Below are positions 19,458-58,199 of a DNA stretch of 64,000 bases, piece by piece. The position numbers and the translations under genes were made by a program. Source of the stretch: Actinomycetota bacterium (GTDB lineage Bacteria; Actinomycetota; Thermoleophilia; BMS3ABIN01); assembly GCA_016235065.1 (NCBI GenBank), contig JACRMB010000010.1:70281-134280 (forward strand), written 5' to 3'. Each line of letters begins with the position of its first letter. Positions within the stretch are counted from its first letter, which is position 1. The notes below the pieces were generated by a model. The model was not told the origin of the DNA. It made no database searches and was given only the letters and a program-made list of their open reading frames with translations.

Positions 19458-19859
19458 CTAGGGACAAGAACCTTCCAGCGGCATCGGCGTGCCAGCTCCC
19501 TCATCAACATGCCAAATGTCGCCCGGGCTTCCGTTATGGAAGGCTTCCAGACAAAAACCGGCACCGCTGTCAGGGATCGATATGTTGATTTCCGCTGACT
19601 GGTTATAGCCGATTGCGAAAAGATCGTTCAGAACACCGGTATATACGCCATTAATATCTTCGTATGCGATCTCGGCGACAGCGGCATTGTAAAGGTCACT
19701 CTTGACGTTGGCTTCCCACGCCTTTTCTCTCTGGCGCAGGTACATGGGAATGGCAATAGCCGCTAGGATGGCAATGATAACGATCACGACCAGCAGCTCG
19801 ATAAGCGTGAAACCGCTTTCGCCATTACTCCTGCAGTATCTGGTCGTACGGCCTAACAT
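19458..19859 (-). CDS. pilA: Type IVa major pilin (PilA-like), copy 1
   Basis: Motif G-FTLIELLVVIVIIAILAAIAIP. The mature part is about 115 aa with a C-terminal Cys pair (C…C) suited to a disulfide loop. Confidence 0.85.
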   Translation of the reverse strand: MLGRTTRYCRSNGESGFTLIELLVVIVIIAILAAIAIPMYLRQREKAWEANVKSDLYNAAVAEIAYEDINGVYTGVLNDLFAIGYNQSAEINISIPDSGAGFCLEAFHNGSPGDIWHVDEGAGTPMPLEGSCP

Positions 19860-19975: not shown

Positions 19976-20374
19976 TTATGGACAGTTGCCAACCTGAGGA
20001 TCACCACTTGCACTCGTCATAAACCATACACGTGCCGCATTACTTGTATGGAATGCTTCCATACAATAACCAGCCGCGTCGCCGTCTACTGGAGTCAGAG
20101 TGATGTCGGCGGAGTTGTTGTAACCTTCTGCGAGCAGATCTGCTAAAGCTACAGTGTACGTAGAGTTATCAGTGAAATAACTCTCCTGTGCCACTGCCGC
20201 ATTGCGAAGATCGCTCTGCGCGTTCGCATCCCAGCCCTTCTGCCGCTGGCTCAGATACATCGGAATAGCGATAGCCGCCAGAATCGCGATGATGATGATG
20301 ACCACCAACAGCTCGATCAGGGTAAAACCGCCTTCGCCGCCTACCTGCATCCTTTTCTTGATTCCTGTAATCAT
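19976..20374 (-). CDS. pilA: Type IVa major pilin (PilA-like), copy 2
   Basis: Motif GEGG-FTLIELLVVIIIIAILAAIAIP. It is paralogous to copy 1, shares the C-terminal Cys pair, and has a GGAGGTG RBS. Confidence 0.85.
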   Translation of the reverse strand: MITGIKKRMQVGGEGGFTLIELLVVIIIIAILAAIAIPMYLSQRQKGWDANAQSDLRNAAVAQESYFTDNSTYTVALADLLAEGYNNSADITLTPVDGDAAGYCMEAFHTSNAARVWFMTSASGDPQVGNCP

Positions 20375-20460: not shown

Positions 20461-20655
20461 CAATATCCTTAGATCCACGGTGGCAGCTCAGCCGACCAGC
20501 TGTGCTGGTCCTGAAGCTTTGCGCCCCACCCTCACGAGTGGTTTGCCCTTTTCACCTTCACCCCTATACTACCCAACTGCCCTTTTCCTAGACACTTTCC
20601 CGCAGGGGCTGCGCGGTGAATTCGCGCCTTTATTCGGCAATTGCCGGATAAAGCT

Positions 20656-21539: not shown

Positions 21540-22757
21540 CTAACCTACAGCATTCATGAGATTGAAGATCGGCAGATAAAGCGCAACTACAATAACTCCG
21601 ACCAAAGCGCCCACTCCTATCATCATTATCGGCTCAAGAATCGAAGTAAGCGATTTGACAGATGCATTAACCTCGTCTTCATAGAAGTCGGCAATCTTGT
21701 TGAGCATCGTATCGACAGCACCGGTTTCCTCTCCCACTGCGATCATTTGGGTCACCATAGGTGGAAATACCTTTGATTTGGTTAACGGCTCAGACATCGG
21801 ACGGCCTTCTTTGACTTCCCTCTTTACATTAGCCATCGCATCGGAGACAACAACATTGCCAGCAGTATCACCAGTGATTTCAATTGCCTGAAGTATTGGG
21901 ACGCCGCTTGAAACAAGAGTGCTCAGCGTGCGCGAGAACCTGGCCATCGACAGCTTCCTTACGATTTCGCCGATCCCCATTGGAATCTGAAGTTTTGCAC
22001 GGTCCCAGGCAGCCGTTCCCTGCGGTGTCCGTTTGATGCGGATGATCCCATAGATAATGCCCGCGAAAGCAGCAAATATAAATACTCCCATGATGCTTTT
22101 CATCGTGTTGCTGATGTTGACCATGATCCTCGTAAGCATAGGCAGCTGGCTGCCCAAGTCTGCATACATCTTGGAGAAGATCGGGATGATGAAGAGCATC
22201 ATCGCAATCAGTACCAGTAGCGCGAAAGTGGCAATTAGCAGAGGGTATACCATCGCCGATTTGATTGTTCGCTTGAGACTATCCTCGGCTTCAAGCTGAG
22301 TCGCAACGCGATTGAGTGTGTCGTCGAGAATACCGCCGGCCTCACCAGCCCGGACCATGCTCACATATAACCTGTTGAATACCTTCGGGTGCTTTTCCAA
22401 TGCGTCTGAAAGGGCACTGCCGCTCTCAACATCATTCCGGACATCACCGATGATGGACTTCAATTTAGCATTCTGGGTCTGGTTTTCGAGAATATACAAA
22501 GCTCTCAGCAGGGCCAGGCCGGAATTGATCATTGTCGCGAACTGGCGGGAAAATACGGTGATATTCTTAGACTTGATACGCTGGGAATCCTTCAGCATAT
22601 TGCTGAAGGATGTGCCGCCACTCTTCTCATTGATATCAACGACTGTATAGCCTTTGCTTCGGAGCTCCGTGGCTACGGCTGCGCGGCTGTCCGCCTCCAG
22701 CTCGCCCTTGGCGGGTATTCCTCTAACATCTCTCACCTTGTAAACAAATGTGCTCAT
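21540..22757 (-). CDS. pilC: Type IV pilus assembly platform protein PilC (GspF family)
   Basis: 405 aa. It carries two GspF-type repeats and three TM segments. Confidence 0.9.
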   Translation of the reverse strand: MSTFVYKVRDVRGIPAKGELEADSRAAVATELRSKGYTVVDINEKSGGTSFSNMLKDSQRIKSKNITVFSRQFATMINSGLALLRALYILENQTQNAKLKSIIGDVRNDVESGSALSDALEKHPKVFNRLYVSMVRAGEAGGILDDTLNRVATQLEAEDSLKRTIKSAMVYPLLIATFALLVLIAMMLFIIPIFSKMYADLGSQLPMLTRIMVNISNTMKSIMGVFIFAAFAGIIYGIIRIKRTPQGTAAWDRAKLQIPMGIGEIVRKLSMARFSRTLSTLVSSGVPILQAIEITGDTAGNVVVSDAMANVKREVKEGRPMSEPLTKSKVFPPMVTQMIAVGEETGAVDTMLNKIADFYEDEVNASVKSLTSILEPIMMIGVGALVGVIVVALYLPIFNLMNAVG

Positions 22758-22802
22758 AATTCCATCCCTGCTTCTGGATTGTGCCTGTACATAATGCCTT
22801 GC

Positions 22803-23870
22803 TTAAGCAACCTTTTTCCCCATAATCAGCCTTTCCAGCTCTTCAGGATTACTGGATCGACGGATTGCGAGTTCCTTAGTAATCTGGCCTCTTCTCACCA
22901 GCTCGGCCAGCGAACTGTCCATAGTGACCATCCCGAACCTGGCTCCGGTCTGCATGACAGAATAGATCTGGTGTGTCTTTGCTTCCCGTATAAGATTTCT
23001 AACAGCCGGTGTTGGAATTAGGACTTCGCATGCTGGGACTCTTGATGTGCCATCAACTGTCGGTAAAAGCTGCTGCGTAACGACACCCATAAGGGTGGCT
23101 GCCAGCTGTACCCGGATTTGCCCCTGCTGATGTGGTGGAAAAACGTCAATTATACGGTCGATTGTCTGCGGAGCATCTTGGGTGTGAAGCGTCGCAAAGA
23201 CGAGGTGACCGGTTTCAGCTGCAGTGAGGGCGGTTTGCATGGTCTCTGTATCACGCATCTCACCCACAAGTATGACATCAGGATCCTGTCTGAGTACGGA
23301 CTTTAGTGCACGATTGAATGACTTCGTGTCCGTTCCAACTTCGCGCTGGTTGACTATGGATTTTCCATGGCGATGAAGAAACTCAATCGGGTCCTCGATC
23401 GTCATGATGTGTTCTTCTCGGGAGAAATTGATTTCCTGGATCACCGCAGCCAGGGTTGTCGATTTACCAGAACCGGTTGGACCTGTAACAACAACGAACC
23501 CTCTAGGCTTGCCAGCCATTTTATGTACTGCAGCTGGCAGCATAAGATCGTCAATATCCTTTATCTGAGCCGGAATCAAACGAAAAGCCGCTCCCAGACT
23601 GTTTCGCTGAAAGTAGGCATTAACCCTGAACCTTGCTCTCCCCGGCACTGAATAGGAAAAGTCGATTTCCCATTCGTTCTCAATCCTCTGGCGCTGGTCC
23701 TGCGAGAGTATGCTGTAAATGAGATCCCTTGTATCATTACTGGTTAATCGAGGATAATCCATCCGGATAAGCTTGCCCGATACCCTTATCACGGGCGGAG
23801 AGCCGACCGTCAGATGCAGGTCTGATGCTTTTCTTTCCAGGACCTCGACAAGAATGTCGACCAAGTCCAT
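22803..23870 (-). CDS. pilT: Twitching-motility retraction ATPase PilT
   Basis: 355 aa with the Walker A motif GPTGSGKST plus Asp-box and His-box motifs. The size and sequence are typical of PilT. Confidence 0.9.
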   Translation of the reverse strand: MDLVDILVEVLERKASDLHLTVGSPPVIRVSGKLIRMDYPRLTSNDTRDLIYSILSQDQRQRIENEWEIDFSYSVPGRARFRVNAYFQRNSLGAAFRLIPAQIKDIDDLMLPAAVHKMAGKPRGFVVVTGPTGSGKSTTLAAVIQEINFSREEHIMTIEDPIEFLHRHGKSIVNQREVGTDTKSFNRALKSVLRQDPDVILVGEMRDTETMQTALTAAETGHLVFATLHTQDAPQTIDRIIDVFPPHQQGQIRVQLAATLMGVVTQQLLPTVDGTSRVPACEVLIPTPAVRNLIREAKTHQIYSVMQTGARFGMVTMDSSLAELVRRGQITKELAIRRSSNPEELERLIMGKKVA

Positions 23871-23898
23871 GTAGCGTCCCCCCTCTGTTCGTGCCTTG

Positions 23899-25611
23899 CT
23901 AGATTATGACCCTTGCGATCTCTTCCATGGAGGTCACGCCCTTGATGACCTTGTCGAGACCGTCCTCGCGAAGAGAGAGCATGCCTTCCGCCTGTGCCAC
24001 TCTCGAAATCTCATCGGCACTTTTTCTCTCCACCGTTAACCGCTCAATAGCTTCGCTGACAATCATGACCTCATAGATTCCCAACCTGCCTTTGTAACCG
24101 GTATTGTTGCACCGTGGACAGCCGGCGGCACGGTAAAGAGTGATGTCCTTACCCATTACTTCCTGAGGAAAGCCGTTTTGCCGCAGTGCTTCATCCGTCG
24201 GCTTATAAGGCTCCTTGCAGTTGGTGCAGAGCTTTCGCGCCAGACGCTGGGCCATGATGCATTCGATGGCAGAAGCTGTAAGGAACGGCTCCACTCCCAT
24301 TTCAGTCAAACGCGTCAGTGCTCCAGGAGCATCGTTGGTATGAAGCGTGCTTAACACCATGTGACCAGTCAATGCTGCTTCGATTGCGATCTGCGCCGTT
24401 TCCTTGTCACGAATCTCACCGACCATCACGATATCCGGGTCTGAGCGAAGGATAGCCCTGAGTCCGGAGGCGAAAGTAAGGCCGGCTTTAGCGTTCATTT
24501 GTGTCTGATTGATGCCTGAAAGGCGATACTCCACCGGGTCTTCCACAGTGATGATGTTCTTCTCCTTGGAATTGAGCACATTAAGTGTCGCGTATAGAGT
24601 CGTGGACTTTCCGCTACCAGTAGGCCCGGTCACCAGAATGGCACCGTATGGCTTCCTGAACGACTTCTCGAAGCGCTTTAGTGCCCTCTCGGAAAAGCCC
24701 AGATCCATGAGATTCAGCATGATGCTGCTTTTATCAAGCAGGCGGAGGACTATCTTTTCTCCATAGACTGTCGGCATGGAGGCGACACGAATGTCTATGG
24801 GTTTGCCGCCGACAGTCAGGCCGATGCGTCCGTCCTGAGGGATCCGGCGCTCAGCAATATCAATATCTGCCATAACCTTGATGCGGGATAGCACTCCCGC
24901 CTGCATTCGTTTGGGGACAGACATGATCTCATGTAATACACCATCGATCCTGAAGCGGACGACCAGTTCTTTCTCCTGCGGTTCAAAATGAAGGTCGCTG
25001 GCGCCATCCTCGACACCCTGGCTGATAACACCGTTTACCAGCTTGACGATCGGCGCTTCTGACGCGACATCGCGGATATCTGCCTCCATCGATGTGTCGG
25101 CTGTAAAATCGCCCTCCATGTCGACTTCTTCCGCGACAGAATCGCCCAGTCTGTGGATCTTGGAGATCTGGTTGAATACATCTTCAGCAGACGAGATCGC
25201 GGGTTTGATGTCATAGCCCGTCATCATGCGAAGGTCATCGATGGCGAATACGTTTGTCGGATCGACCATCGCTACCAACAACGTGTTTTCATCGAGGAAT
25301 TTGATGGGGATAGCGCCATACCGCCGGGCCAGCTTTTCGGGGATCATTGTGGCGGCGAGTGAATCGATCTCGAACTCGTCGAGTCCGATGCTTTCGACGC
25401 CGAGACGCTCAGCCAATGCCAGGTTTAATTGATCCTGAGTTAGAATTCCATCTTCAACTAGGATCTCGCCGAGGCGCTTCGGGGTATCCTTTTGTTTTTC
25501 GAGGACAACAGCCAGCTGGTCCCGACTAATAAGACCCTTGGCCACCAGGATCTCGCCGATTGGCTGTAGCTTCTTGCGAGTCTGCCGAGTTGTCAGTTCG
25601 CTTGGATTCAA
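23899..25611 (-). CDS. pilB: Type IV pilus assembly ATPase PilB (GspE family)
   Basis: 570 aa. It has an N-terminal T2SSE_N domain and a Walker A GPTGSGKST. The C-terminal tetracysteine motif reads CTNCKEPY…GCPRCNNTGYKGR. Confidence 0.9.
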   Translation of the reverse strand: MNPSELTTRQTRKKLQPIGEILVAKGLISRDQLAVVLEKQKDTPKRLGEILVEDGILTQDQLNLALAERLGVESIGLDEFEIDSLAATMIPEKLARRYGAIPIKFLDENTLLVAMVDPTNVFAIDDLRMMTGYDIKPAISSAEDVFNQISKIHRLGDSVAEEVDMEGDFTADTSMEADIRDVASEAPIVKLVNGVISQGVEDGASDLHFEPQEKELVVRFRIDGVLHEIMSVPKRMQAGVLSRIKVMADIDIAERRIPQDGRIGLTVGGKPIDIRVASMPTVYGEKIVLRLLDKSSIMLNLMDLGFSERALKRFEKSFRKPYGAILVTGPTGSGKSTTLYATLNVLNSKEKNIITVEDPVEYRLSGINQTQMNAKAGLTFASGLRAILRSDPDIVMVGEIRDKETAQIAIEAALTGHMVLSTLHTNDAPGALTRLTEMGVEPFLTASAIECIMAQRLARKLCTNCKEPYKPTDEALRQNGFPQEVMGKDITLYRAAGCPRCNNTGYKGRLGIYEVMIVSEAIERLTVERKSADEISRVAQAEGMLSLREDGLDKVIKGVTSMEEIARVII

Positions 25612-36617: not shown

Positions 36618-38693
36618 ATGCCCGCTGCAGACCCTTCCAAAATCAGAAACGTAGCTGTAATCGGCCACCGCGGAACCGGCAAGACCAGCCTGACAGAAGC
36701 GATTCTTTTTACATCCGGCGCAGTGAACCGCCAGGGCACGGTCGAGCAGGGTTCCACGGTGGCTGATCATGATGATGACGAGAAGAAGCGGCAGATGTCC
36801 ATATCGGCATCACTTTGCAACCTCGAATGGCGCGACCGCCATATAAATCTTTTGGATACGCCGGGTGACCCTAGTTTCCACGCCGACACCATCGCCTCGT
36901 TGCGGGTCGTCGAGGGCGCGATTGTCGCCGTCAACGCCACCGTCGGCGTTGAAGTACAGCATGAGCGCCTCTGGAAACATTGCGAAGACAACAACGTAAG
37001 CCGGCTGGTATTCGTAAACATGATGGACCGCGAGCGGGCCGATTTTCTCGCCGCGGTGGAACAGCTAAGCGAAAGCTTCGGATCTGGGGCGGTGGCCGCG
37101 CAGCTGCCCATTGGGTCAGAAGACAAGTTCGAGGGTATCGTCGACCTTTTAACAATGAAGGCATGGCGATACAAAGATGGCAAGCCGGTTGAGGGCGACA
37201 TTCCCGCCGACATGACCGACCTGGTGAACGAATACCGCGACAAGCTGATGGATGAGGTTGCCCAGAACGACGACGACGTCATGGAGAAGTACCTGGATGG
37301 AAAGGATCTGTCGAACGAGGAGCTCTATCACGCCCTGAAGGAAGGCGTGGTAGCCGGTACTGTATTTCCCATTGGCGCCGGCTGCGCTACCAAACTCATC
37401 GGTGTCAGCAACCTACTGGATCTTCTCGTAGATGCCGTTCCGTCGCCTGCCAAGCATGGTTCGTTCAAGGCGATCGATGCCAGCGCTGGAGAGGTTGATC
37501 TCGAGGGCAAGGCAGAAGGTCCGCTGGCTGCATTCGTCTTCAAGACCCTCGCCGATCCTTTCAGTGGCAGGATCAATGTCATGCGGGTATTCTCCGGAGA
37601 AATGAAAAGCGACAGCAATGTATTCAACCCTGCCAGCAAGACCAAGGAGCACGTGGGCAAGCTGCTGCGGCTGCAGGGTAAAGACAACAGCCCCACGGAC
37701 ACACTCGGCCCCGGAGACATCGGTGCCGTCGCCAAACTCAAGGCGACCAATACCGGCGACTCTCTCTGTAACGAATCGCAGCAGATCATATTCTCGCCGA
37801 TCCAGTTTCCCAACCCGCTCATGTCATTCGCGGTCGAGCCCAAGAGCAAGGGCGACGAGGAAAAGATCGGCACCTCCCTCAAGCGGTTCGTGGAAGAGGA
37901 CCCGACGCTGGTCGTGAAACGCGACACCCAGACAAACGAACTCATCATTTCCGGCCTAAGCCAGGTTCACGTGGAGGTCGTCGTCGACCGCATGAAGGAG
38001 CGGTTCGGCGTCGAGGTGAATCTGAAGCCGCCTCGCGTTCCATACCTGGAGACCATCCGCAAGGAGGCTAAGGCCCAGGGCAAATACAAGAAGCAGACCG
38101 GAGGCCGGGGCCAGTACGGTGATTGCTGGCTGAAAGTCGAACCTCTGGCCAGCGGCGAGGGATTCGAGTTCGTCGACAAGGTTGTCGGCGGCGTCATCCC
38201 TCGCGGCTTCATCCCGGCAGTGGAAAAAGGCGTAATTGAGGCCATGAAGGAAGGTGAGCTTTCAGGCAGCCCGCTGGTCGATATGCGGGTTACAGTATAT
38301 GACGGCTCTCACCATCCGGTAGATTCTTCGGAAATGGCTTTCAAGATCGCTGCGTCCATGGGCCTGAAGAAGGCCATATCCGATGCGAACCCGATCATCC
38401 TCGAGCCCATCATGACTGTTCAGGTTACCGTTCCGGAAGAAAACGTGGGCGATGTCATCGGGGATATGAACTCCAGGAGAGGCAAGGTCCTCGGTATGGA
38501 GCCCAAGGGAAAGATGAACCAGGTAAATTCGGAAGTCCCACTGTCTGAGATGCTGGTATATGCGCCCGACCTGCGTTCTATGACCGGTGGCCGGGGAGAC
38601 TACACCATGGAATTCCTGCGTTACGAAGAAGTGCCTGCACACCTCTCTCAAAAGATCATCGAGCAGGTGCAAGCGGAAAAAGAAGAGAAATAA
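36618..38693 (+). CDS. Elongation factor G paralogue (EF-G-like GTPase) with non-canonical G-motifs
   Basis: 691 aa with the EF-G five-domain layout. The G-motifs deviate from consensus: G1 is GHRGTGKTS, G3 is DTPGD, and G4 reads NMMD instead of NKxD. Confidence 0.8.
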   Translation: MPAADPSKIRNVAVIGHRGTGKTSLTEAILFTSGAVNRQGTVEQGSTVADHDDDEKKRQMSISASLCNLEWRDRHINLLDTPGDPSFHADTIASLRVVEGAIVAVNATVGVEVQHERLWKHCEDNNVSRLVFVNMMDRERADFLAAVEQLSESFGSGAVAAQLPIGSEDKFEGIVDLLTMKAWRYKDGKPVEGDIPADMTDLVNEYRDKLMDEVAQNDDDVMEKYLDGKDLSNEELYHALKEGVVAGTVFPIGAGCATKLIGVSNLLDLLVDAVPSPAKHGSFKAIDASAGEVDLEGKAEGPLAAFVFKTLADPFSGRINVMRVFSGEMKSDSNVFNPASKTKEHVGKLLRLQGKDNSPTDTLGPGDIGAVAKLKATNTGDSLCNESQQIIFSPIQFPNPLMSFAVEPKSKGDEEKIGTSLKRFVEEDPTLVVKRDTQTNELIISGLSQVHVEVVVDRMKERFGVEVNLKPPRVPYLETIRKEAKAQGKYKKQTGGRGQYGDCWLKVEPLASGEGFEFVDKVVGGVIPRGFIPAVEKGVIEAMKEGELSGSPLVDMRVTVYDGSHHPVDSSEMAFKIAASMGLKKAISDANPIILEPIMTVQVTVPEENVGDVIGDMNSRRGKVLGMEPKGKMNQVNSEVPLSEMLVYAPDLRSMTGGRGDYTMEFLRYEEVPAHLSQKIIEQVQAEKEEK

Positions 38694-41802: not shown

Positions 41803-44006
41803 AGTCCGAAGAGGCTGCTCTTCAGGACCTTTTCCAGGCTATCTCTGAATATAATCCCGATTTTGATCGTGATCTGATCACGCGGGCTTTCGTCTACTCA
41901 AAGGCACAGCATAAGGGCCGCTTTCGCAAGAGCGGCGAGGATTTCATCTACCACCCGCTGGGAACCGCCCGTATCTGCGCCGACCTCAAGCTCGACAGCG
42001 TGACGATCGCTGCAGCGCTGCTCCATGATGTAGTCGAGGATACTCCCACCACTGTTACCAATATCCGCGAGATGTTCGGCGAAGAAGTCGCTGACCTGGT
42101 CGATGGCCTGACCAAGCTGCAAAAAGTATCTCTCAAGAGCGAAGAAGAAGAACAGGCCGACAACCTCCGGAAGATGATAGTCGCGATGGCCAAGGACATC
42201 CGGGTGATCCTGATCAAACTGGCCGACCGCACGCATAATATGCGAACGATCTGCTACATGGACAAGCAGAAGCAGATCCAGAAGGCCAAGGAAACCCTTG
42301 AGATCTACGCTCCACTGGCTCACCGCCTCGGTATCTACAGCATCAAGTGGGAGCTTGAGGATCTTGCTTTTGCCGCCCTCCATCCGCGCAAATATTCCGA
42401 GTTGCAGCAGATGGTCGCCACACGCCGTGCTGACCGCGAAACCTATGTGGCCCAGGTGGCCGAGTACCTTAAGGTGGAACTCGACAAGGTCGGTATCGAG
42501 TCTGACATCGAGGGACGCGCCAAGCACTTCTACAGCATCTACACCAAGATGGTTAAGCGCGGCAAGGAGTTCAACGAGATCTACGACCTTACCGCCATGA
42601 GGGTGCTGGTCGACACCGTGAAGGATTGTTACGGCGCGCTCGGCATCATCCACTCCTTATGGAAACCGATGCCCGGCCGCTTCAAGGATTACATCGCCAT
42701 GCCCAAGTTCAACATGTACAGGTCATTGCATACGACGGTGATCGGGCCCCAGGGCAAGCCTCTGGAGATCCAGATCCGCACGCAGAAGATGCACCAGACT
42801 GCGGAATACGGCATCGCGGCGCACTGGCTCTACAAGGAAGCCAGCAAAACGAAAAAATCCAAGGAGCAGGCTGCGGACAAGCTCGCCTGGCTCCGGCAGA
42901 TGATGGAGTGGCAGAGCGAAACCGAGGATCCCAAGGAATTCATGAAGACTCTTCGCATCGATCTTTTCGAGGAAGAGGTCTATGTGTTCACGCCTAAGGG
43001 CGAGGTCGTAAGCCTGGCGTCGGGTTCTACTCCGGTTGATTTCGCCTATGCAGTCCATACCGACGTCGGCCATCATTGCGTCGGCGCCAAGGTCAATGGG
43101 CGCATCGTGCCGCTGCAGCACACGCTGCATAGCGGTGACTTCCTTGAGATCCTGACGTCGAAATCGAGCCAGGGACCCTCTCGCGACTGGCTCAATTTCG
43201 TCAAGACGAGCCGGGCGCGAAACAAGATCCGCCAATGGTTCAAGAAGGAACGCCGCCAGGATTCCGAACACATCGGCCGCGAGCTACTGCAGGAAGCACT
43301 TCGGCGCAAGGGTCTCGCCAGCCAGAAGATCGTCGCCTCGGCAGCATTCTCCGAGCTGACCAGGTCGATGGGCTTCCTCAAGGCTGAGGATCTCTATGTC
43401 AGTCTGGGAACCGGCAAGACTTCACCCCAGCAGGTTCTCACCAAGATCACCCAGCAGCTCGATGGCGCCGGCGAGATCCCATCGGTAGTGACCAAGTCGA
43501 CCATACCAGCCCGCGAGCGGTCCGCGACTGCTCCTCCAAAAGAACTCGGTATAAGCGTGGACGGAGTGAGCGATGTGGGCGTCAGGCTGGCCAAGTGCTG
43601 CAAGCCGTTGCCGGGAGACAAGATCGTCGGCTATATCTCACTAGGGAAGGGCGTGAGCATCCATCGAAAGGATTGCCCCAATGCCAAGGCGCTGACACTG
43701 CGTTCAGGCGAGCGTTTTATCGAAGTCGCCTGGAAGGGCGCCTCTGAAAAAGCTTTCCGGGCTGAGTTCCAGATCGAAGCCATGGACCGCAGCCACCTGC
43801 TCGAAGACATATCGCGCACCCTGAGCGAGGCCGGCATCAATATAGTCTCCGCCCAGTTGAGTACCATGCCTGACCATATGGTCAAAGACCGCTTCGTCGT
43901 GGAGATCGGCGACGCCAAGCTTCTTGACACGGTGCTCGATACCATCAAGGGCATCGATACCGTATTCGACGCCTACCGGATCACTCCAGGGATCGAAGAG
44001 GACTGA
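41802..44006 (+). CDS. rel: Bifunctional (p)ppGpp synthetase/hydrolase of the RelA/SpoT family. The start codon is unresolved.
   Basis: An HD hydrolase domain (HPLGTARI…LLHDVVEDT) is followed by a synthetase domain (YRSLHTTV, AHWLYKE), then TGS and ACT domains. The ORF track starts it at GTG 42000, inside the HD domain. The reading frame is open and homologous back to 41664, with no ATG, GTG or TTG in between. Confidence 0.8.
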   Translation, partial: ESEEAALQDLFQAISEYNPDFDRDLITRAFVYSKAQHKGRFRKSGEDFIYHPLGTARICADLKLDSVTIAAALLHDVVEDTPTTVTNIREMFGEEVADLVDGLTKLQKVSLKSEEEEQADNLRKMIVAMAKDIRVILIKLADRTHNMRTICYMDKQKQIQKAKETLEIYAPLAHRLGIYSIKWELEDLAFAALHPRKYSELQQMVATRRADRETYVAQVAEYLKVELDKVGIESDIEGRAKHFYSIYTKMVKRGKEFNEIYDLTAMRVLVDTVKDCYGALGIIHSLWKPMPGRFKDYIAMPKFNMYRSLHTTVIGPQGKPLEIQIRTQKMHQTAEYGIAAHWLYKEASKTKKSKEQAADKLAWLRQMMEWQSETEDPKEFMKTLRIDLFEEEVYVFTPKGEVVSLASGSTPVDFAYAVHTDVGHHCVGAKVNGRIVPLQHTLHSGDFLEILTSKSSQGPSRDWLNFVKTSRARNKIRQWFKKERRQDSEHIGRELLQEALRRKGLASQKIVASAAFSELTRSMGFLKAEDLYVSLGTGKTSPQQVLTKITQQLDGAGEIPSVVTKSTIPARERSATAPPKELGISVDGVSDVGVRLAKCCKPLPGDKIVGYISLGKGVSIHRKDCPNAKALTLRSGERFIEVAWKGASEKAFRAEFQIEAMDRSHLLEDISRTLSEAGINIVSAQLSTMPDHMVKDRFVVEIGDAKLLDTVLDTIKGIDTVFDAYRITPGIEED

Positions 44007-44478
44007 TGAGATTGAAGCAAGGACGTCGTTGGACCAGTGCCTTTGGAATCGTTTTCCTCGCCATGGTTTTTTTTGTGACTTCCGGTATCTTGCAGGCGGG
44101 GTGCGGTTCGGAAAGCAGTCCATCAGCTAAATACGATCTGCCGGCTTACGTCAACGACCCCTCGGCACCACCGGAAACCGCAAAGGCTTATCAGGCGGCA
44201 ATTGACTTCTCAGAGGATTTCGCAAAAATTCCCTGCTACTGTGGGTGTGGCGACAATGCCAAGCATGAAAGCCTCCAGGATTGCTTCATCTCCTCAATCA
44301 GGGGAGATGAGATCAGGTTCAGCAACCACGGCGCCGGCTGAGGCCTCTGCGTCGACGAAGCACTGTATGTGCTTCAAGGAAGGACAGGCGGGACTCCGAT
44401 CGAGGAAATCCGTAAGCAGATCGATCAGATGTATGGTGGCGGCAAAGCCGGCAAACCCACGCCTACTCAAGCGCCCTA
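44006..44478 (+). CDS. PCYCGC-motif lipoprotein, proposed to be a selenoprotein (in-frame TGA at 44339-44341 read as Sec)
   Basis: A signal peptide with the lipobox LQAGC and the IPCYCGCGD motif are present. The ORF stops at a TGA, but the same frame continues protein-like for 45 codons to TAG 44476-44478: …NHGAG-U-GLCVDEALYVLQGRTGGTPIEEIRKQIDQMYGGG…. The TGA falls at the first position of a UxxC motif. Confidence 0.45.
44357..44375 (+). promoter_or_regulatory. SECIS-like hairpin 15 nt downstream of the in-frame TGA
   Basis: Perfect 7-bp stem GAAGCAC-TGTAT-GTGCTTC. The loop contains GU. Confidence 0.4.
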
Positions 44479-44706
44479 GAAGATCTTCCCCGGATTCAGG
44501 ATCCCTTCAGGATCAAAGTTGTTCTTGATCGTGCCCGCCGACCCATCGTAGCTGTATTTATAGACGAGATCCTCCTCAGCAGCGTTCACATTTGAGGCGC
44601 CCACATTCTCGGCAGGGTTATTACCAAAGCACTACGCATGGATGCGTATCCATTCGATGCCGCCCGCGCTTAAACCTTTGAGGGCAATGTCCTCACAATA
44701 ATTCAT
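44476..44706 (-). pseudogene. Remnant of the 3' end of an FAD-linked oxidase (GlcD/D-lactate dehydrogenase-type C terminus) with an in-frame TAG
   Basis: The minus-strand frame reads MNYCEDIALKGLSAGGIEWIRIHA-*-CFGNNPAENVGASNVNAAEEDLVYKYSYDGSAGTIKNNFDPEGILNPGKIF*. The …IKxxFDPxGILNPGKIF ending is the signature C terminus of FAD-linked oxidases. Only about 75 codons are present. An RBS-like GGAGG lies upstream of the ATG. Confidence 0.45.
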
Positions 44707-54262: not shown

Positions 54263-56197
54263 TTGCAGATCTGCCCTTTTTCAGCCGGACGTGCGGTTGT
54301 GAAGAGCCCCTCCCCCTCCACTGAGCGCCTTTTCTTGGATCCTTTCAATCCCGAAAACCCCGGTTCTGCGCCGAATGGCGAATCGTCCCCCGGCTCTCGA
54401 CTGTACCTTTACCGATTACTGCAAATGGCCGTCAACCAGGAATTCCCGGGTGGAAGTGGAACGGTCCCGTCCTATCATGGGGCCAGGAATCTGGCGAGGC
54501 GCCTGGAGATCGGTGGCATCGGACAACTCGTGGCGCTATTTCGTGATCTTGGATTAGGGGAACTGCAGGTCGAGATGGCGAACGACAGATTGTCCGTCAG
54601 GCTTACCGACGTATCGGCAGATTCACGGAGAACGGGTGCATCCCGGACATCCTGTGAAATGGAGCGCGGACTGATCGACGGCGCCCTGGAGTCGATCACC
54701 GGTATTCCGGTGGAAACGATTGAAAGCCGTTGCCGGATGAGAGGCGACGATATCTGCTGCTTCGAGTCAATCCGGCAGGAAGTCGCCGGCCGGCAACGCT
54801 TCATCCCTGTATTGGCCGGAGATCCCGGCCGGAATCTCGGATCCGGCAATATCTGGGATGGCCTTCTTGGGCCTGATTCCGGGCTCGGGGGACCAGCACG
54901 GGGAGACCTCAAGTCATGGTTCATGGATCTGGCCATGCGGGAAGTAGCCCGTGCCCGCCGGCACGGACGGCAGCTTTCGGTGATGTACGTGGATCTGGAC
55001 GATCTAGGACAGATAAACACGGCTCATGGCAGGGCTGCCGGGGACCGGGTGCTCCAGGCGGTTGGAGCCGCTCTCAGCAAAAGCTGCCGCTCGGAGGATT
55101 TCCTCTGGCACCAGGGCGAAGATGAGTTTGCTATCCTCTTGTCGGAGACCAGCGCCGATGGCGCCGGTATCGTTGCCCGCAGGCTCTCTACCGAAGTGCT
55201 TTCCGCAGCCGAATATGTGGATGTTGCTGCGAAAGTCTCTGCCAGCATAGGTTATTCTTCCTTTCCTGTTCATGCGGATAGTGTGCCCGGATTATTCGAA
55301 AGCGCCCGGTCAGCCGTTTACCTGGCAAAGTCCATGGGAAAGGGCCGGGCGCAGGCCGCCAGGCCGGTTACAGGCACCAAAACAGGGGGAAGCGATGAGA
55401 CTGCACGGGGTGCTGATGGGGTATTAAGAGATTCTGGTAGCAGAGATGCAGCCTCCGATGGCCAGGGTGTAGTCGTTGCTAATCATGGTGTTGCAGGAAA
55501 AATCAGTGCTGAAGAAATCGAGACGCTGCCGGGTATCAGCCGGGAGTTGCCGGTCGCATCGGTAATTATCGCAAGCAACAGCCCCTTACTCATTGCAGGC
55601 ATGCGACAGGTACTTACCGGCACTGATGGTTTCAGGATAGTGGCTGAGATTGTGGAAGCTGGGCGGTTTCTGGCTGAGGTCGGCGACCAGCGGCCTGATC
55701 TGGTCTTCGCAGACCTGGAGATGTCCAGGAATGAGGATTTTGCAGTGATGAAGCTGCTGCGGGCTCAGAACCTCCCCTGCAAATACACGGTCTTCTGCTC
55801 GGACATAGACCAGGATGTGATCAAGCTCGCGGCGGACTTCTCGGTTGATGGGGTTATCCTTCAGGACTCCGCATCTGATGACGTGATCGCCGCTCTCCAG
55901 GCAGTCTTTCATGGAAAGACGGTACATCCGGTTGCTGTAGCGGACGCGATCAAGGAGCTAAGCAAGAACAGGAGGCTGCTGGAAGAGCTGTCCGAGCGGG
56001 AAATCGAAGTGTTACGCCTGATTGCGGAAGGCAAGTCGAATTCCCAGATATCGAATGAACTCTTCATCACCGTCAATACGGTGAGATTCCACCTCGCAAA
56101 CATCTACCAGAAGTTGAGTGTTTCCAATCGCACCGAGGCCGCCAACTACTATCTTCGCCAGGATCTGGCGCCAGACGGGCAGACGAGGCTTCTGTAG
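54263..56197 (+). CDS. Multidomain regulator with a V4R domain, a degenerate GGDEF domain, a pseudo-receiver and a LuxR-type HTH
   Basis: The V4R region has conserved Cys residues (…TSCEMERGL…RCRMRGDDICCFES). The GGDEF-like domain reads QGEDEF instead of GG(D/E)EF. The REC-like domain has the usual DD acidic pair replaced by SN (VIIASNSPLL). The C-terminal LuxR HTH is REIEVLRLIAEGKSNSQISNELFITVNTVRFHLANIYQKL. Confidence 0.75.
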   Translation: MQICPFSAGRAVVKSPSPSTERLFLDPFNPENPGSAPNGESSPGSRLYLYRLLQMAVNQEFPGGSGTVPSYHGARNLARRLEIGGIGQLVALFRDLGLGELQVEMANDRLSVRLTDVSADSRRTGASRTSCEMERGLIDGALESITGIPVETIESRCRMRGDDICCFESIRQEVAGRQRFIPVLAGDPGRNLGSGNIWDGLLGPDSGLGGPARGDLKSWFMDLAMREVARARRHGRQLSVMYVDLDDLGQINTAHGRAAGDRVLQAVGAALSKSCRSEDFLWHQGEDEFAILLSETSADGAGIVARRLSTEVLSAAEYVDVAAKVSASIGYSSFPVHADSVPGLFESARSAVYLAKSMGKGRAQAARPVTGTKTGGSDETARGADGVLRDSGSRDAASDGQGVVVANHGVAGKISAEEIETLPGISRELPVASVIIASNSPLLIAGMRQVLTGTDGFRIVAEIVEAGRFLAEVGDQRPDLVFADLEMSRNEDFAVMKLLRAQNLPCKYTVFCSDIDQDVIKLAADFSVDGVILQDSASDDVIAALQAVFHGKTVHPVAVADAIKELSKNRRLLEELSEREIEVLRLIAEGKSNSQISNELFITVNTVRFHLANIYQKLSVSNRTEAANYYLRQDLAPDGQTRLL

Positions 56198-56780: not shown

Positions 56781-58199
56781 TTGGGGAGGGTACCGATGGC
56801 AGGCAGAGTTCGCGCCAGGCAGAATGCTCTGGTATTGATGACTGCCGTTTTATGCATCTTTTCTGGTGCCCTCTTCTTCTATCTTTCATCGAGTACGTCT
56901 TGGTCAAAAGATATAATTATACAAACGGTTCTCCTGACCGTCATTGCCTGGATTGCTGAAGCTAAAGCGGTTCAATTTTCAAGCAGCGTCCATGTTAGCA
57001 GCGCCAATCTCCCAGTCCTTCTTGGCATATTCTTTCTAGGGCCTGTACAAAGTGCATTAATTGCATGCATGAGTTTCTTGGCTGTCAGTCGGGGAAAGGA
57101 TTCCTTGCGAATCACTTTCATTCTCGCATCGAACGCAGTTTCAGTCATGACGGTTGGGGCACTGTTTGAATATCTAAGTAGTGTGCTGGATTTTGGATTC
57201 CCCGTTTCATCAATAACGCTAACCTTTATTATTACTGGAGTCTTAGTAGGCATACTTTGGGAGACAGTAGATTTCTCATTTGCATCGATAGGAATCGCAC
57301 TAAAAAACAACCAGAGGATTGTTTCTCTTTGGCACAATAATTTTTTCCCCGCTCTTCCCTCTCAACTAATGATCCTCGGCGTTGGTATCGTTATTGCGGC
57401 AGTTTATATCACGGCTGGCATTGCTGCGGCAGCTCTGTTTTTCATTCCTATATTCGCAAGTCAGCATGTATATCAATTGCTTGTTCAGCAGAAAAGTCTA
57501 TTAGCTGAGCAAACCAAGCTATCCGAAGACTTAATGGATATGAATATCGGCTTGGCTGGTGCCATGATTATGTTGCTGGACAGCAAGGATCATTACACTG
57601 CCAGCCATTCAGCCGGCGTAGCAATGTATTGTCGCGACATGGCAAGAATGATGGGTATGTCTGATGATGAACAGCGAATTGCTCATATGGCTGGACTTCT
57701 TCATGATTTAGGCAAGGTTGGTACTCCGGATGCGGTGCTCAAGAAAGATGGCGAACTGACGGCAAGGGAGTGGGAGCAGATCAAGGAACACCCGACAACA
57801 GCTGCGGAGGTTCTATCTCAGCTTGCCACACACACAGAGATTGCCGACATTATCCGCCATCACCAGGAACATTTCGATGGATCTGGTTATCCCTATGGCA
57901 TCAGCGGTGAAGAAATTCCAGAATTGAGCCGGATGCTTTCCGTGGCCGACACTTATCATGCTTTGACATCAGACAGACCATATAGAGCTGCCAAGAGTCC
58001 TTTCGAAGCGCTGATAATCCTTAGAAAGGTTGCCGGTACTCAGCTGGATCCAAAGTATGTAGAAGTTATGGCTCAGGTTCTAAAGAACGAGGATTTAAGT
58101 TACAGGGAGGGAAGCAAGGCCGACTTTCTCAGTGAATTCCGAAAAGGCCGGCCCGCCCTCAAGTTGGACGATCTCCGCGCAAGCGCGGATGAAGCATAA
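56781..58199 (+). CDS. Membrane-anchored HD-GYP c-di-GMP phosphodiesterase
   Basis: An N-terminal polytopic membrane domain is followed by an HD-GYP domain (HDLGK…HHQEHFDGSGYPYG). The gene GC is about 47%, against a background of about 60%. Confidence 0.85.
   Translation: MGRVPMAGRVRARQNALVLMTAVLCIFSGALFFYLSSSTSWSKDIIIQTVLLTVIAWIAEAKAVQFSSSVHVSSANLPVLLGIFFLGPVQSALIACMSFLAVSRGKDSLRITFILASNAVSVMTVGALFEYLSSVLDFGFPVSSITLTFIITGVLVGILWETVDFSFASIGIALKNNQRIVSLWHNNFFPALPSQLMILGVGIVIAAVYITAGIAAAALFFIPIFASQHVYQLLVQQKSLLAEQTKLSEDLMDMNIGLAGAMIMLLDSKDHYTASHSAGVAMYCRDMARMMGMSDDEQRIAHMAGLLHDLGKVGTPDAVLKKDGELTAREWEQIKEHPTTAAEVLSQLATHTEIADIIRHHQEHFDGSGYPYGISGEEIPELSRMLSVADTYHALTSDRPYRAAKSPFEALIILRKVAGTQLDPKYVEVMAQVLKNEDLSYREGSKADFLSEFRKGRPALKLDDLRASADEA

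Follow-up and report, generated by a model that had tools for sequence, protein, structure and literature searches.

An in-frame UGA codon in a PCYCGC-domain gene of an Actinomycetota bacterium is very likely decoded as selenocysteine

INTRODUCTION

Does the gene that starts at position 44006 of contig region JACRMB010000010.1 (70,281 to 134,280), from an Actinomycetota bacterium, end at the TGA where its database entry ends, or is that codon translated as selenocysteine (Sec)? The whole 64-kb stretch of DNA that was analyzed is referred to below as the window. GenBank record MBI5871264.1 (HZB44_10000) covers only the first 111 codons of the gene, as a "hypothetical protein." An original prediction, made from the letters of the window alone, proposed that translation continues through the TGA. 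Comparison with related sequences indicates that positions 44006 to 44478 are very likely one gene, encoding a 157-residue PCYCGC/CYCXC (PF13798) selenoprotein in which UGA 44339-44341 is decoded as Sec.

RESULTS AND DISCUSSION

Layout of the gene

The open reading frame that begins with ATG does run from 44006 to a TGA at 44339-44341, as first described, and past that TGA the same frame is indeed open for 45 codons (GLCVDEALYVLQGRTGGTPIEEIRKQIDQMYGGGKAGKPTPTQAP) up to TAG 44476-44478. Reading the TGA as Sec (U) gives HGAG-U-GL-C, the UxxC motif that had been proposed, and the peptide around the Sec residue after read-through would be FSNHGAG-U-GLCVDEALYVLQGR. Three independent assemblies, each from another sequencing run, agree exactly in this sequence, and the TGA is present in all of them. 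The features of the locus are as follows.

42000 to 44006, forward strand: upstream relA/spoT-type (p)ppGpp synthetase/hydrolase gene (Pfam RelA_SpoT, HD_4, TGS, and ACT)
44006 to 44478, forward strand: full predicted selenoprotein coding sequence of 157 codons, with Sec as codon 112 and TAG 44476-44478 as the true stop
44006 to 44104, forward strand: putative export signal, read from the sequence, with a basic N terminus (RLKQGRR), a hydrophobic stretch, and a lipobox-like LQAG-C; Cys33 is at 44102-44104
44231 to 44248, forward strand: PCYCGC motif, Pro76 to Cys81, the family signature, invariant in alignments A2 and A5
44339 to 44341, forward strand: UGA probably read as Sec (U112), the first residue of U-G-L-C; TGA in 6/6 orthologues, aligned to a conserved Cys
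44348 to 44350, forward strand: TGC for Cys115, the UxxC partner of U112; column invariant in alignment A2
44357 to 44375, forward strand: putative SECIS hairpin with a 7-bp stem (GAAGCAC/GUGCUUC) and a 5-nt loop (UGUAU) with G at loop position 2

The stop codon of the upstream relA gene (TGA 44004-44006) shares one base with the ATG of the selenoprotein gene (44006-44008), and the same 1-nt overlap is found in loci L001, L002, and L003. Because of this overlap, the two genes are probably cotranscribed and translationally coupled. The other neighbors of the window gene are a decayed FAD oxidase and a CAP-domain protein.

An open frame or a hairpin alone is little above chance. Composition alone gives a chance of about 17% that 45 codons stay open, and 23 of the 79 long frames in the window have an extension at least that long, which makes such an extension a 17 to 29% chance event overall. 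A hairpin compliant with published SECIS geometry follows about 4.9% of the 2,417 TGA sites in the window and an equally good one follows 2.0%, and the fold of 62 nt has a z-score of only -1.25. The two features gain their significance when other sequences are compared.

Conservation of the UGA and of the downstream frame

The simplest reading of the GenBank product of 111 residues is that the TGA is a genuine stop, either of a short gene or of a nonsense pseudogene, and that the frame and the hairpin downstream of it arose by chance. The frequency of extensions of at least 45 codons (23/79 long frames) and of comparable hairpins (about 2 to 5% of TGA sites) would be compatible with this. The comparative data are not. 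The truncated product scores 45 bits against the Pfam PCYCGC profile (profile positions 39 to 107), versus 83.3 bits (E = 2.2e-23; positions 39 to 153 of 153) for the read-through product, which places the latter, with its motif at residues 76 to 81, within PF13798 (gathering threshold, 25 bits). As anticipated if homology continues past the TGA, the peptide encoded after the TGA aligns with the last third of the Pfam model, up to the C terminus of the model.

Five metagenomic orthologues, 54 to 76% identical to the window protein and from different samples, were all cut by gene callers at ...NHGAG. TGA is present at the U112 codon in all five of them, and thus in 6/6 sequences counting the window gene, down to 54% identity. 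After the TGA the orthologues share a conserved frame, xLCV(D/E)EAL.VLQ...IR..ID..YG, that extends to a real stop. The conservation of the downstream codons in related genomes, on which the original prediction had been staked, is evident from a downstream dN/dS of 0.05 to 0.29; frame 0 is the only frame open in all six sequences, and the other two frames carry stops. A metagenome scan for further orthologues found nothing beyond the L002 contig that was already known. A scan of species-representative genomes, which do not include the window's own genome, gave a best match of 45% identity.

Full-length homologues have HxxG-C-xx-C at the site of the TGA, and the motif HxxxCxxC is present in 77/77 of the Cys-type genes of the fetched loci. 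The expectation that a conserved Cys would align to the TGA was borne out: C112 is invariant in alignment A2 and is conserved to at least 90% across 116 sequences. C115 is likewise invariant in A2 and conserved in the 116 sequences. A product truncated at the TGA would be without both residues of this invariant CxxC. Furthermore, both Cys positions are TGA in six additional family genes. Preservation of this kind is not compatible with a pseudogene. The comparative data therefore contradict a real stop followed by a chance open frame, the main alternative considered at the outset, and a genuine stop now appears extremely improbable.

A hairpin with the geometry of a bacterial SECIS element

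The hairpin GAAGCAC-TGTAT-GTGCTTC lies at 44357-44375 and begins 15 nt past the TGA, as first reported. The loop follows the UGA at a spacing of 22 nt, and the hairpin, folded in isolation, has a free energy of -9.5 kcal/mol. Published bSECIS criteria (PMC13188914, Fig. 2) call for a loop of 3 to 9 nt, an upper stem of 4 to 16 bp, G in the first two loop positions, a distance of 16 to 37 nt from UGA to loop, and a minimum free energy of ≤ -7.5 kcal/mol. In our own perfect-stem implementation, which is distinct from bSECISearch, the window hairpin lies within all of these limits, in agreement with its proposed identity as a SECIS. A compliant hairpin follows 11/13 of the TGA-type (Sec-type) genes of the family versus 1/77 of the Cys-type genes.

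The nucleotides of the hairpin are essentially invariant in the six orthologues, whereas the flanking codons vary. For invariant amino acids, a single codon is used at 4/6 positions in the hairpin versus 2/21 outside it (P = 0.011). No covariation was seen in the window-type hairpin among its six orthologues, in which the hairpin is invariant. The hairpin of the sister genes with a UxxU motif, which has a different sequence, contains two compensatory pairs, with 97.6% pairing versus 19 to 45% in slid controls. Rfam at gathering thresholds gave no relevant family near the gene. Elsewhere in the window, Rfam matched one tRNA and one c-di-GMP-I riboswitch.

Probable Sec decoding in this organism

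It is conceivable that the UGA is read through without Sec, by near-cognate or suppressor insertion of Cys or Trp or because the whole lineage has reassigned UGA. Sec-UGA codons are known to receive Cys in other systems, and Sec machinery was not observed within the 64-kb window: ARAGORN found no tRNA-Sec in it, and a Pfam survey of about 40 large window open reading frames found no SelA, SelB, or SelD. The product of the GTPase gene at 36618-38693 is an ordinary EF-G. However, the affected codon aligns to the invariant Cys of the CxxC motif, and it is followed by a hairpin of bSECIS geometry with a loop G that is not seen in Cys-type homologues (1/77). UGA at a Cys position together with a hairpin in TGA-type genes is what SelB-dependent decoding would be expected to show. 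In addition, Sec is already catalogued for the family. Reassignment is incompatible with the use of UGA to end ordinary window genes, including relA just upstream (44004-44006); as originally stated, TGA is an ordinary stop elsewhere in the window, where 33/79 long frames end in it. Read-through without Sec is thus highly unlikely, although marginally less so than a genuine stop.

A second candidate was found in the same MAG on another contig, of 712 kb. The DUF1573 gene MBI5870299.1 has a TGA after ...LEGC, and read-through raises its Pfam score from 27 to 45 bits. A compliant hairpin is present, orthologues retain the TGA, and the sequence in Cys-type relatives is LEGC-C. Two genes of one MAG thus share this signature, which makes Sec decoding by the organism very probable. 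SelA, SelB, SelC, and SelD would accordingly be expected elsewhere in the genome, and selenium is presumably incorporated in the window protein.

The mechanism that we propose is that UGA 44339-44341 is decoded as Sec during translation, with the hairpin at 44357-44375, inside the coding sequence, serving as the bacterial SECIS. By recruiting SelB-GTP-Sec-tRNA(Sec) to a ribosome that has paused at this codon, the hairpin would allow translation to run for the remaining 45 codons to the TAG. The product would be exported, tethered to the outer face of the membrane by its predicted lipoprotein-type signal, and would fold into a small helical domain; the structure that was modeled is that of a Cys paralogue from the same genome, standing in for the read-through protein. 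This domain would display U112-x-x-C115 beside a Cys/His-rich core (C77, C79, C81, H87, C93, and H108).

By eye, positions -1 and -2 of ILQAG-C33 fit the lipobox [LVI][ASTVI][GAS]C; position -3 is Q, with L at -4. A Cys at the Cys33 position is at least 90% conserved in 116 family members, with the consensus LxGCG, and one PCYCGC family member has been described as a predicted lipoprotein (PMC13068155). In orthologues L004 and L005, a signal-anchor helix is present and the equivalent of Cys33 is missing.

Relationship to known selenoproteins

The suggestion that this might be a new selenoprotein family does not hold. A "CYCXC family protein (OS_HP4), PF13798, UxxC, 1 Sec" is listed in a 2026 review (PMC13188914, Table 1), PF13798/CYCXC/OS_HP4 with the UxxC Sec motif is also in another inventory (PMC9312934), and NCBIfam NF041379 is the "CYCXC family (seleno)protein." Because the family is already catalogued, the locus represents a truncated database annotation to correct rather than a new kind of selenoprotein. 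For OS_HP4, reviews cite the Olavius symbiont study (NAR 2007), the main text of which names only OS_HP1 to OS_HP3.

The window protein shares with OS_HP4/NF041379 the PCYCGC domain, one Sec, the UxxC site, and in-frame bacterial SECIS recoding. The Sec of OS_HP4 is presumably at the position of U112, because the family has a single CxxC. The window protein differs in its origin from Actinomycetota MAGs, its putative lipoprotein-type signal, and its probable coupling to relA. Although homologous to the NF041379 subfamily, it also falls outside the equivalog (69 bits versus a 90-bit cutoff), and all of the other actinobacterial Sec and Cys forms tested against NF041379 scored 67 to 82 bits. These scores below the cutoff place the window protein on an actinobacterial branch distinct from that subfamily.

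Cys-type PCYCGC (lipo)proteins of PF13798, from Bacillales, Chloroflexota, and others, have the same domain, with the invariant PCYCGC, C93, H108, and CxxC, as well as a putative export signal with a lipobox Cys, and their neighbors are often metal related. Lipoprotein AOT13_14730 of Parageobacillus thermoglucosidasius (PMC13068155) is an example. They differ from the window protein, to which they are 30 to 48% identical, in having Cys at the position of the UGA, and a SECIS hairpin follows in just 1/77.

Two-Sec PCYCGC genes encoding U-x-x-U were observed in related Actinomycetota MAGs, at loci L006, L008 (twice), L014, L017, and L027, and this form is apparently uncatalogued. The hosts are Actinomycetes, Thermoleophilia, and BMS3Abin01 MAGs. 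The U-x-x-U proteins are the nearest nonorthologous relatives of the window protein (about 45 to 47% identity), and their genes have the TGA at the first position and a downstream 7-bp hairpin with a 5-nt loop containing G. In contrast to the window gene, the second Cys codon is also TGA, giving two Sec residues, and the hairpin, of other sequence, is displaced downstream by 4 nt, at a spacing of 26 nt to the first UGA and of 17 nt to the second. The N terminus is a signal-anchor helix instead of the putative lipobox, and the U-x-x-U genes are always behind ArsR and a CDF exporter, whereas the window gene is behind relA. A neighbor-joining tree neither supported nor refuted a shared Sec-containing ancestor of the UxxC and UxxU forms.

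Possible function

Outside the membrane, the protein might bind or hand over a thiophilic metal ion (Zn/Cd/Cu class), and the selenolate would be one of the ligands. This proposal, to which we assign slightly less than even chances, was suggested by the recurrence of family members beside ArsR-type sensors, CDF exporters, heavy-metal P-type ATPases, and multicopper oxidases. Among 80 family loci, the recurrent neighbors include ArsR-type regulators (13), multicopper oxidases (8), and HMA P-type ATPases (6), and in five MAG loci the Sec gene comes directly after ArsR and CDF genes. No metal gene adjoins the window gene itself, so the metal assignment is based on paralogues and distant homologues.

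A somewhat less favored possibility is that the UxxC is not a metal site but the redox-active selenenylsulfide center of an extracytoplasmic thiol-disulfide oxidoreductase resembling CcmH or Dsb proteins. The sole structural relative found, in a weak match, is the redox protein CcmH (PDB 2hl7 and 2kw0), which is a small, extracytoplasmic, membrane-tethered helical domain with a CxxC, as is proposed for the PCYCGC proteins. The two have locally similar sequences in the helix-turn-helix past the motif (...eGks.keI..y...rYg). The genomic neighborhoods described above point instead to the metal-binding role.

More speculatively, the actinobacterial Sec PCYCGC proteins could be a subfamily of their own outside the OS_HP4 equivalog, in which Sec is an extracytoplasmic metal ligand rather than a redox catalyst and which takes in both a U-x-x-U form hard-wired to ArsR-CDF efflux operons and the relA-coupled U-x-x-C form of the window. 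We consider this unlikely as a whole. If it is true, the relA-coupled form might tie expression around a stringent-response gene to the metal or redox status of the envelope or to the supply of selenium.

Implications

The finding leaves knowledge of Sec decoding itself unchanged, and its practical value is in annotation. The entry MBI5871264.1, like those for its orthologues in several databases, stops at ...NHGAG and so lacks the last third of the domain, to which the active-site UxxC belongs. The DUF1573 gene MBI5870299.1 of the same MAG is truncated likewise. With the window gene, a selenoprotein family so far known from prediction alone gains an Actinomycetota (Thermoleophilia-like) branch, and the UxxU-ArsR-CDF linkage, together with the recurring metal homeostasis neighbors, provides a first contextual clue to the function of the domain.

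Probable read-through of the in-frame TGA

The reading frame, the hairpin and the HGAG-U-GL-C motif that results from decoding TGA 44339-44341 as Sec were all confirmed as originally predicted:

44006-44341 (+), ORF with an ATG start, stopping at TGA 44339-44341
up to TAG 44476-44478 (+), extension of 45 codons in the same frame as 44006-44341
44357-44375 (+), hairpin GAAGCAC-TGTAT-GTGCTTC with a perfect 7-bp stem, starting 15 nt 3' of the TGA

A protein search identified the GenBank entry as MBI5871264.1 (HZB44_10000, MAG Actinobacteria bacterium), annotated at 111 aa. TGA serves as an ordinary stop elsewhere in the window, as had been stated: relA, directly 5' of the gene, terminates at TGA 44004-44006, and TGA ends 33 of the 79 long frames. 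An open extension of at least 45 codons has a chance of about 17% from composition and was seen in 23 of the 79 long frames. The chance originally assigned to it was a fair estimate.

By published criteria, a bacterial SECIS element has 3-9 nt in its apical loop, with a G within the first two positions, and 4-16 bp in its upper stem; the loop lies 16-37 nt from the UGA, and the minimum free energy is -7.5 kcal/mol or lower (PMC13188914, Fig. 2 legend). The window hairpin has the loop UGUAU, a 7-bp stem, a spacing of 22 nt, and an energy of -9.5 kcal/mol. Compliant hairpins follow 4.9% of the 2417 TGA sites in the window, and one as good as that of the window gene follows 2.0%. The 62-nt fold at the gene is not unusually stable (z = -1.25). 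The open extension, the hairpin, and the fold stability are each weak evidence on their own.

Conservation extends across the TGA. The Pfam PCYCGC model (PF13798) scored the truncated product at 45 bits over profile positions 39-107 and the read-through product at 83.3 bits over positions 39-153 of 153, and thus homology reaches the end of the family model. Five metagenomic relatives found by protein search (54-76% identity) are all annotated as ending at ...NHGAG, and the contigs of all five have TGA at that codon. Beyond it these relatives share the conserved frame x-L-C-V-(D/E)-E-A-L-x-V-L-Q...I-R-x-x-I-D-x-x-Y-G, followed by a real stop. Pairwise dN/dS 3' of the TGA is 0.05-0.29, and in several sequences stops interrupt the other two frames. 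Alignment to PCYCGC homologues, the comparison proposed with the original prediction, places HxxG-C-xx-C of the full-length proteins at the TGA site; an alignment of 10 sequences shows both Cys as invariant, and one of 116 sequences shows them as conserved.

A genuine stop followed by a chance open frame is practically excluded by the conservation of both the TGA and the downstream frame in relatives, the dN/dS values, and the invariant Cys of homologues. The conserved TGA and the selected downstream frame likewise practically exclude a pseudogene. Assembly error is practically excluded because the window sequence, TGA included, is identical across three independent assemblies from different runs. 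It is highly probable that the window gene is a real selenoprotein gene truncated by mis-annotation in GenBank.

SECIS-like hairpins and a probable two-Sec form

When the SECIS criteria were applied across the PCYCGC family by a simple no-bulge implementation, 11 of 13 TGA-type genes had a compliant hairpin; among 77 Cys-type homologues just 1 had one at the corresponding site. In the two TGA-type genes that did not pass, this hairpin is present but bulged or mismatched. This supports the proposal of a SECIS-like hairpin after the TGA. Hardly any nucleotide of the hairpin varies among six orthologues, and the flanking codons show free synonymous change; codons for invariant amino acids used a single codon in 4 of 6 cases inside the hairpin versus 2 of 21 outside (Fisher p = 0.011). 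No covariation was found within this hairpin among the six orthologues because its sequence is invariant. Sister genes have a hairpin of other sequence, CACUGGC-CGUGA-GCCAGUG, at nearly the same place, with two compensatory pairs and 97.6% pairing versus 19-45% with the partners slid.

There are six of these sister genes, spread over five MAGs from Actinomycetes, Thermoleophilia and BMS3Abin01, and in each of them TGA takes the place of both Cys codons (HGAG-U-DI-U-V):

L006 3938-4456, U-x-x-U gene
L008 3854-4375 and 4404-5024, two U-x-x-U genes
L014 3887-4423, U-x-x-U gene
L017 3785-4342, U-x-x-U gene
L027 3627-4127, U-x-x-U gene

Each gene has one hairpin, at 26 nt from the first UGA and at 17 nt from the second, so that both UGAs fall within the SECIS range of 16-37 nt. 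In a 2026 inventory the family is entered only as UxxC with one Sec, and UxxU is given for other families (PMC13188914). Therefore, the two-Sec form of the PCYCGC family appears to be uncatalogued.

Place among known selenoprotein families

The window selenoprotein gene was correctly spotted from raw sequence. The suggestion that its family might be new did not hold: the protein matches NCBIfam NF041379 ("OS_HP4_CYCXC, CYCXC family (seleno)protein"), and the entry "Hypothetical protein OS_HP4, UxxC" appears in a review of 2022 (PMC9312934). Because the domain has a single CxxC, the catalogued UxxC should be the same site as that of the window protein. The gene is thus a new member, on an actinobacterial branch, of a family that was already on record as containing Sec in this UxxC motif. 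Judged by profile scores, the branch is separate from NCBI's OS_HP4 proper, since the window protein (69 bits) and every other actinobacterial Sec or Cys form tested (67-82 bits) fall under the 90-bit equivalog cutoff. For "OS_HP4", PMC9312934 and PMC13188914 both refer to the 2007 study of Olavius symbionts (PMC1976440). Only OS_HP1-OS_HP3 appear in its main text and Table 2, and the original description of OS_HP4 was not traced in those parts.

Probable Sec decoding in the organism

tRNA-Sec was not found within the 64-kb window, nor were SelA, SelB, and SelD among its about 40 large ORFs. A profile search located a Cys-type PCYCGC paralogue, HZB44_05000 (MBI5870302.1), elsewhere in the same MAG, on a contig of 712 kb. 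A second gene that may encode a selenoprotein, with relatives on other contigs, lies two genes upstream of this paralogue:

L087 4500-4949, 712-kb contig, DUF1573 lipoprotein gene (GenBank MBI5870299.1, 89 aa)
L092 3001-3453, relative of the DUF1573 gene
L093 236-763, relative of the DUF1573 gene

The candidate reads ...LEGC-TGA followed by 59 further in-frame codons, which are conserved. Read-through raises the Pfam DUF1573 score from 27 to 45 bits and the coverage from 2-35 to 2-96 of 98, and a compliant hairpin, GGUCGUGG-GUG-CCACGACC, lies 3' of the TGA. Nine relatives are all truncated at ...LEGC; on the contigs of two of these, the TGA, the frame open beyond it, and the hairpin are all shared with the candidate. 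In full-length relatives at greater distance the sequence is LEGC-C-PP. Among NCBIfam models, OS_HP2 (seleno)protein matches the candidate best, with a score under the cutoff. The Sec would stand in a C-U context, with C-C in Cys-type relatives, whereas the listed DUF1573 selenoproteins have UGC (PMC13188914). The gene heads a conserved operon, followed by a Fer4_5 membrane protein and the Cys-type PCYCGC gene, that adjoins DnaJ-domain and Rrf2 genes. The organism very likely decodes Sec, because two unrelated genes in one genome bear the full selenoprotein signature.

Other features of the window

Adjoining the selenoprotein gene, a 42-codon ORF (MGASNVNAAEEDLVYKYSYDGSAGTIKNNFDPEGILNPGKIF; 44479-44604, -) joins fragments from the two ends, N- and C-terminal, of an FAD-linked (GlcD-like) oxidase, its pieces resembling residues ~37-56 and 464-476. 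On an orthologous contig the oxidase gene is complete, at 476 aa, and is oriented convergently to the selenoprotein gene (L003 1742-3172, -). The short ORF appears to be what remained after some 400 internal codons were deleted.

Elsewhere, a c-di-GMP-I riboswitch (Rfam RF01051, 62.9 bits; 20479-20557, -) precedes two tandem type IV pilin genes with GFTLIELLVV... N-termini (19976-20374 and 19458-19859, both -), inside a larger type IV pilus cluster with PilB/PilT/PilC-like genes at 21540-25611. A GGDEF-LuxR protein (54263-56197) and an HD-GYP-type protein (56781-58199) are also encoded.

Gene context and possible function

All members of the family carry an export signal, lipoprotein-like with Cys33 in the window protein and a signal-anchor helix in some others, which argues that the domain lies outside the membrane. 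Directly upstream of the Sec gene in five MAGs are genes for an ArsR-family regulator and for an exporter of the CDF type (Cation_efflux + ZT_dimer); each of the six U-x-x-U genes follows such a pair. Neighbors that recur among 80 genome loci are ArsR-type regulators (13 loci), two-component systems, multicopper oxidases (8 loci), and P-type ATPases with an HMA domain (6 loci). Because the domain core has six conserved Cys and two His, alongside this context, we tentatively favor extracytoplasmic metal binding or metal hand-over over a thiol-disulfide redox role, which is possible at a somewhat lower probability. The window gene has no adjoining metal gene. The boldest reading that can be defended, a distinct metal-handling Sec subfamily including the UxxU form, has a low probability.

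At 44004-44008 (TGATG) the relA/spoT stop TGA and the window gene start ATG share one base. This overlap is kept in three orthologous contigs (L001 788, L002 219, L003 1308), which suggests that an exported selenoprotein is translationally coupled to a stringent-response enzyme.
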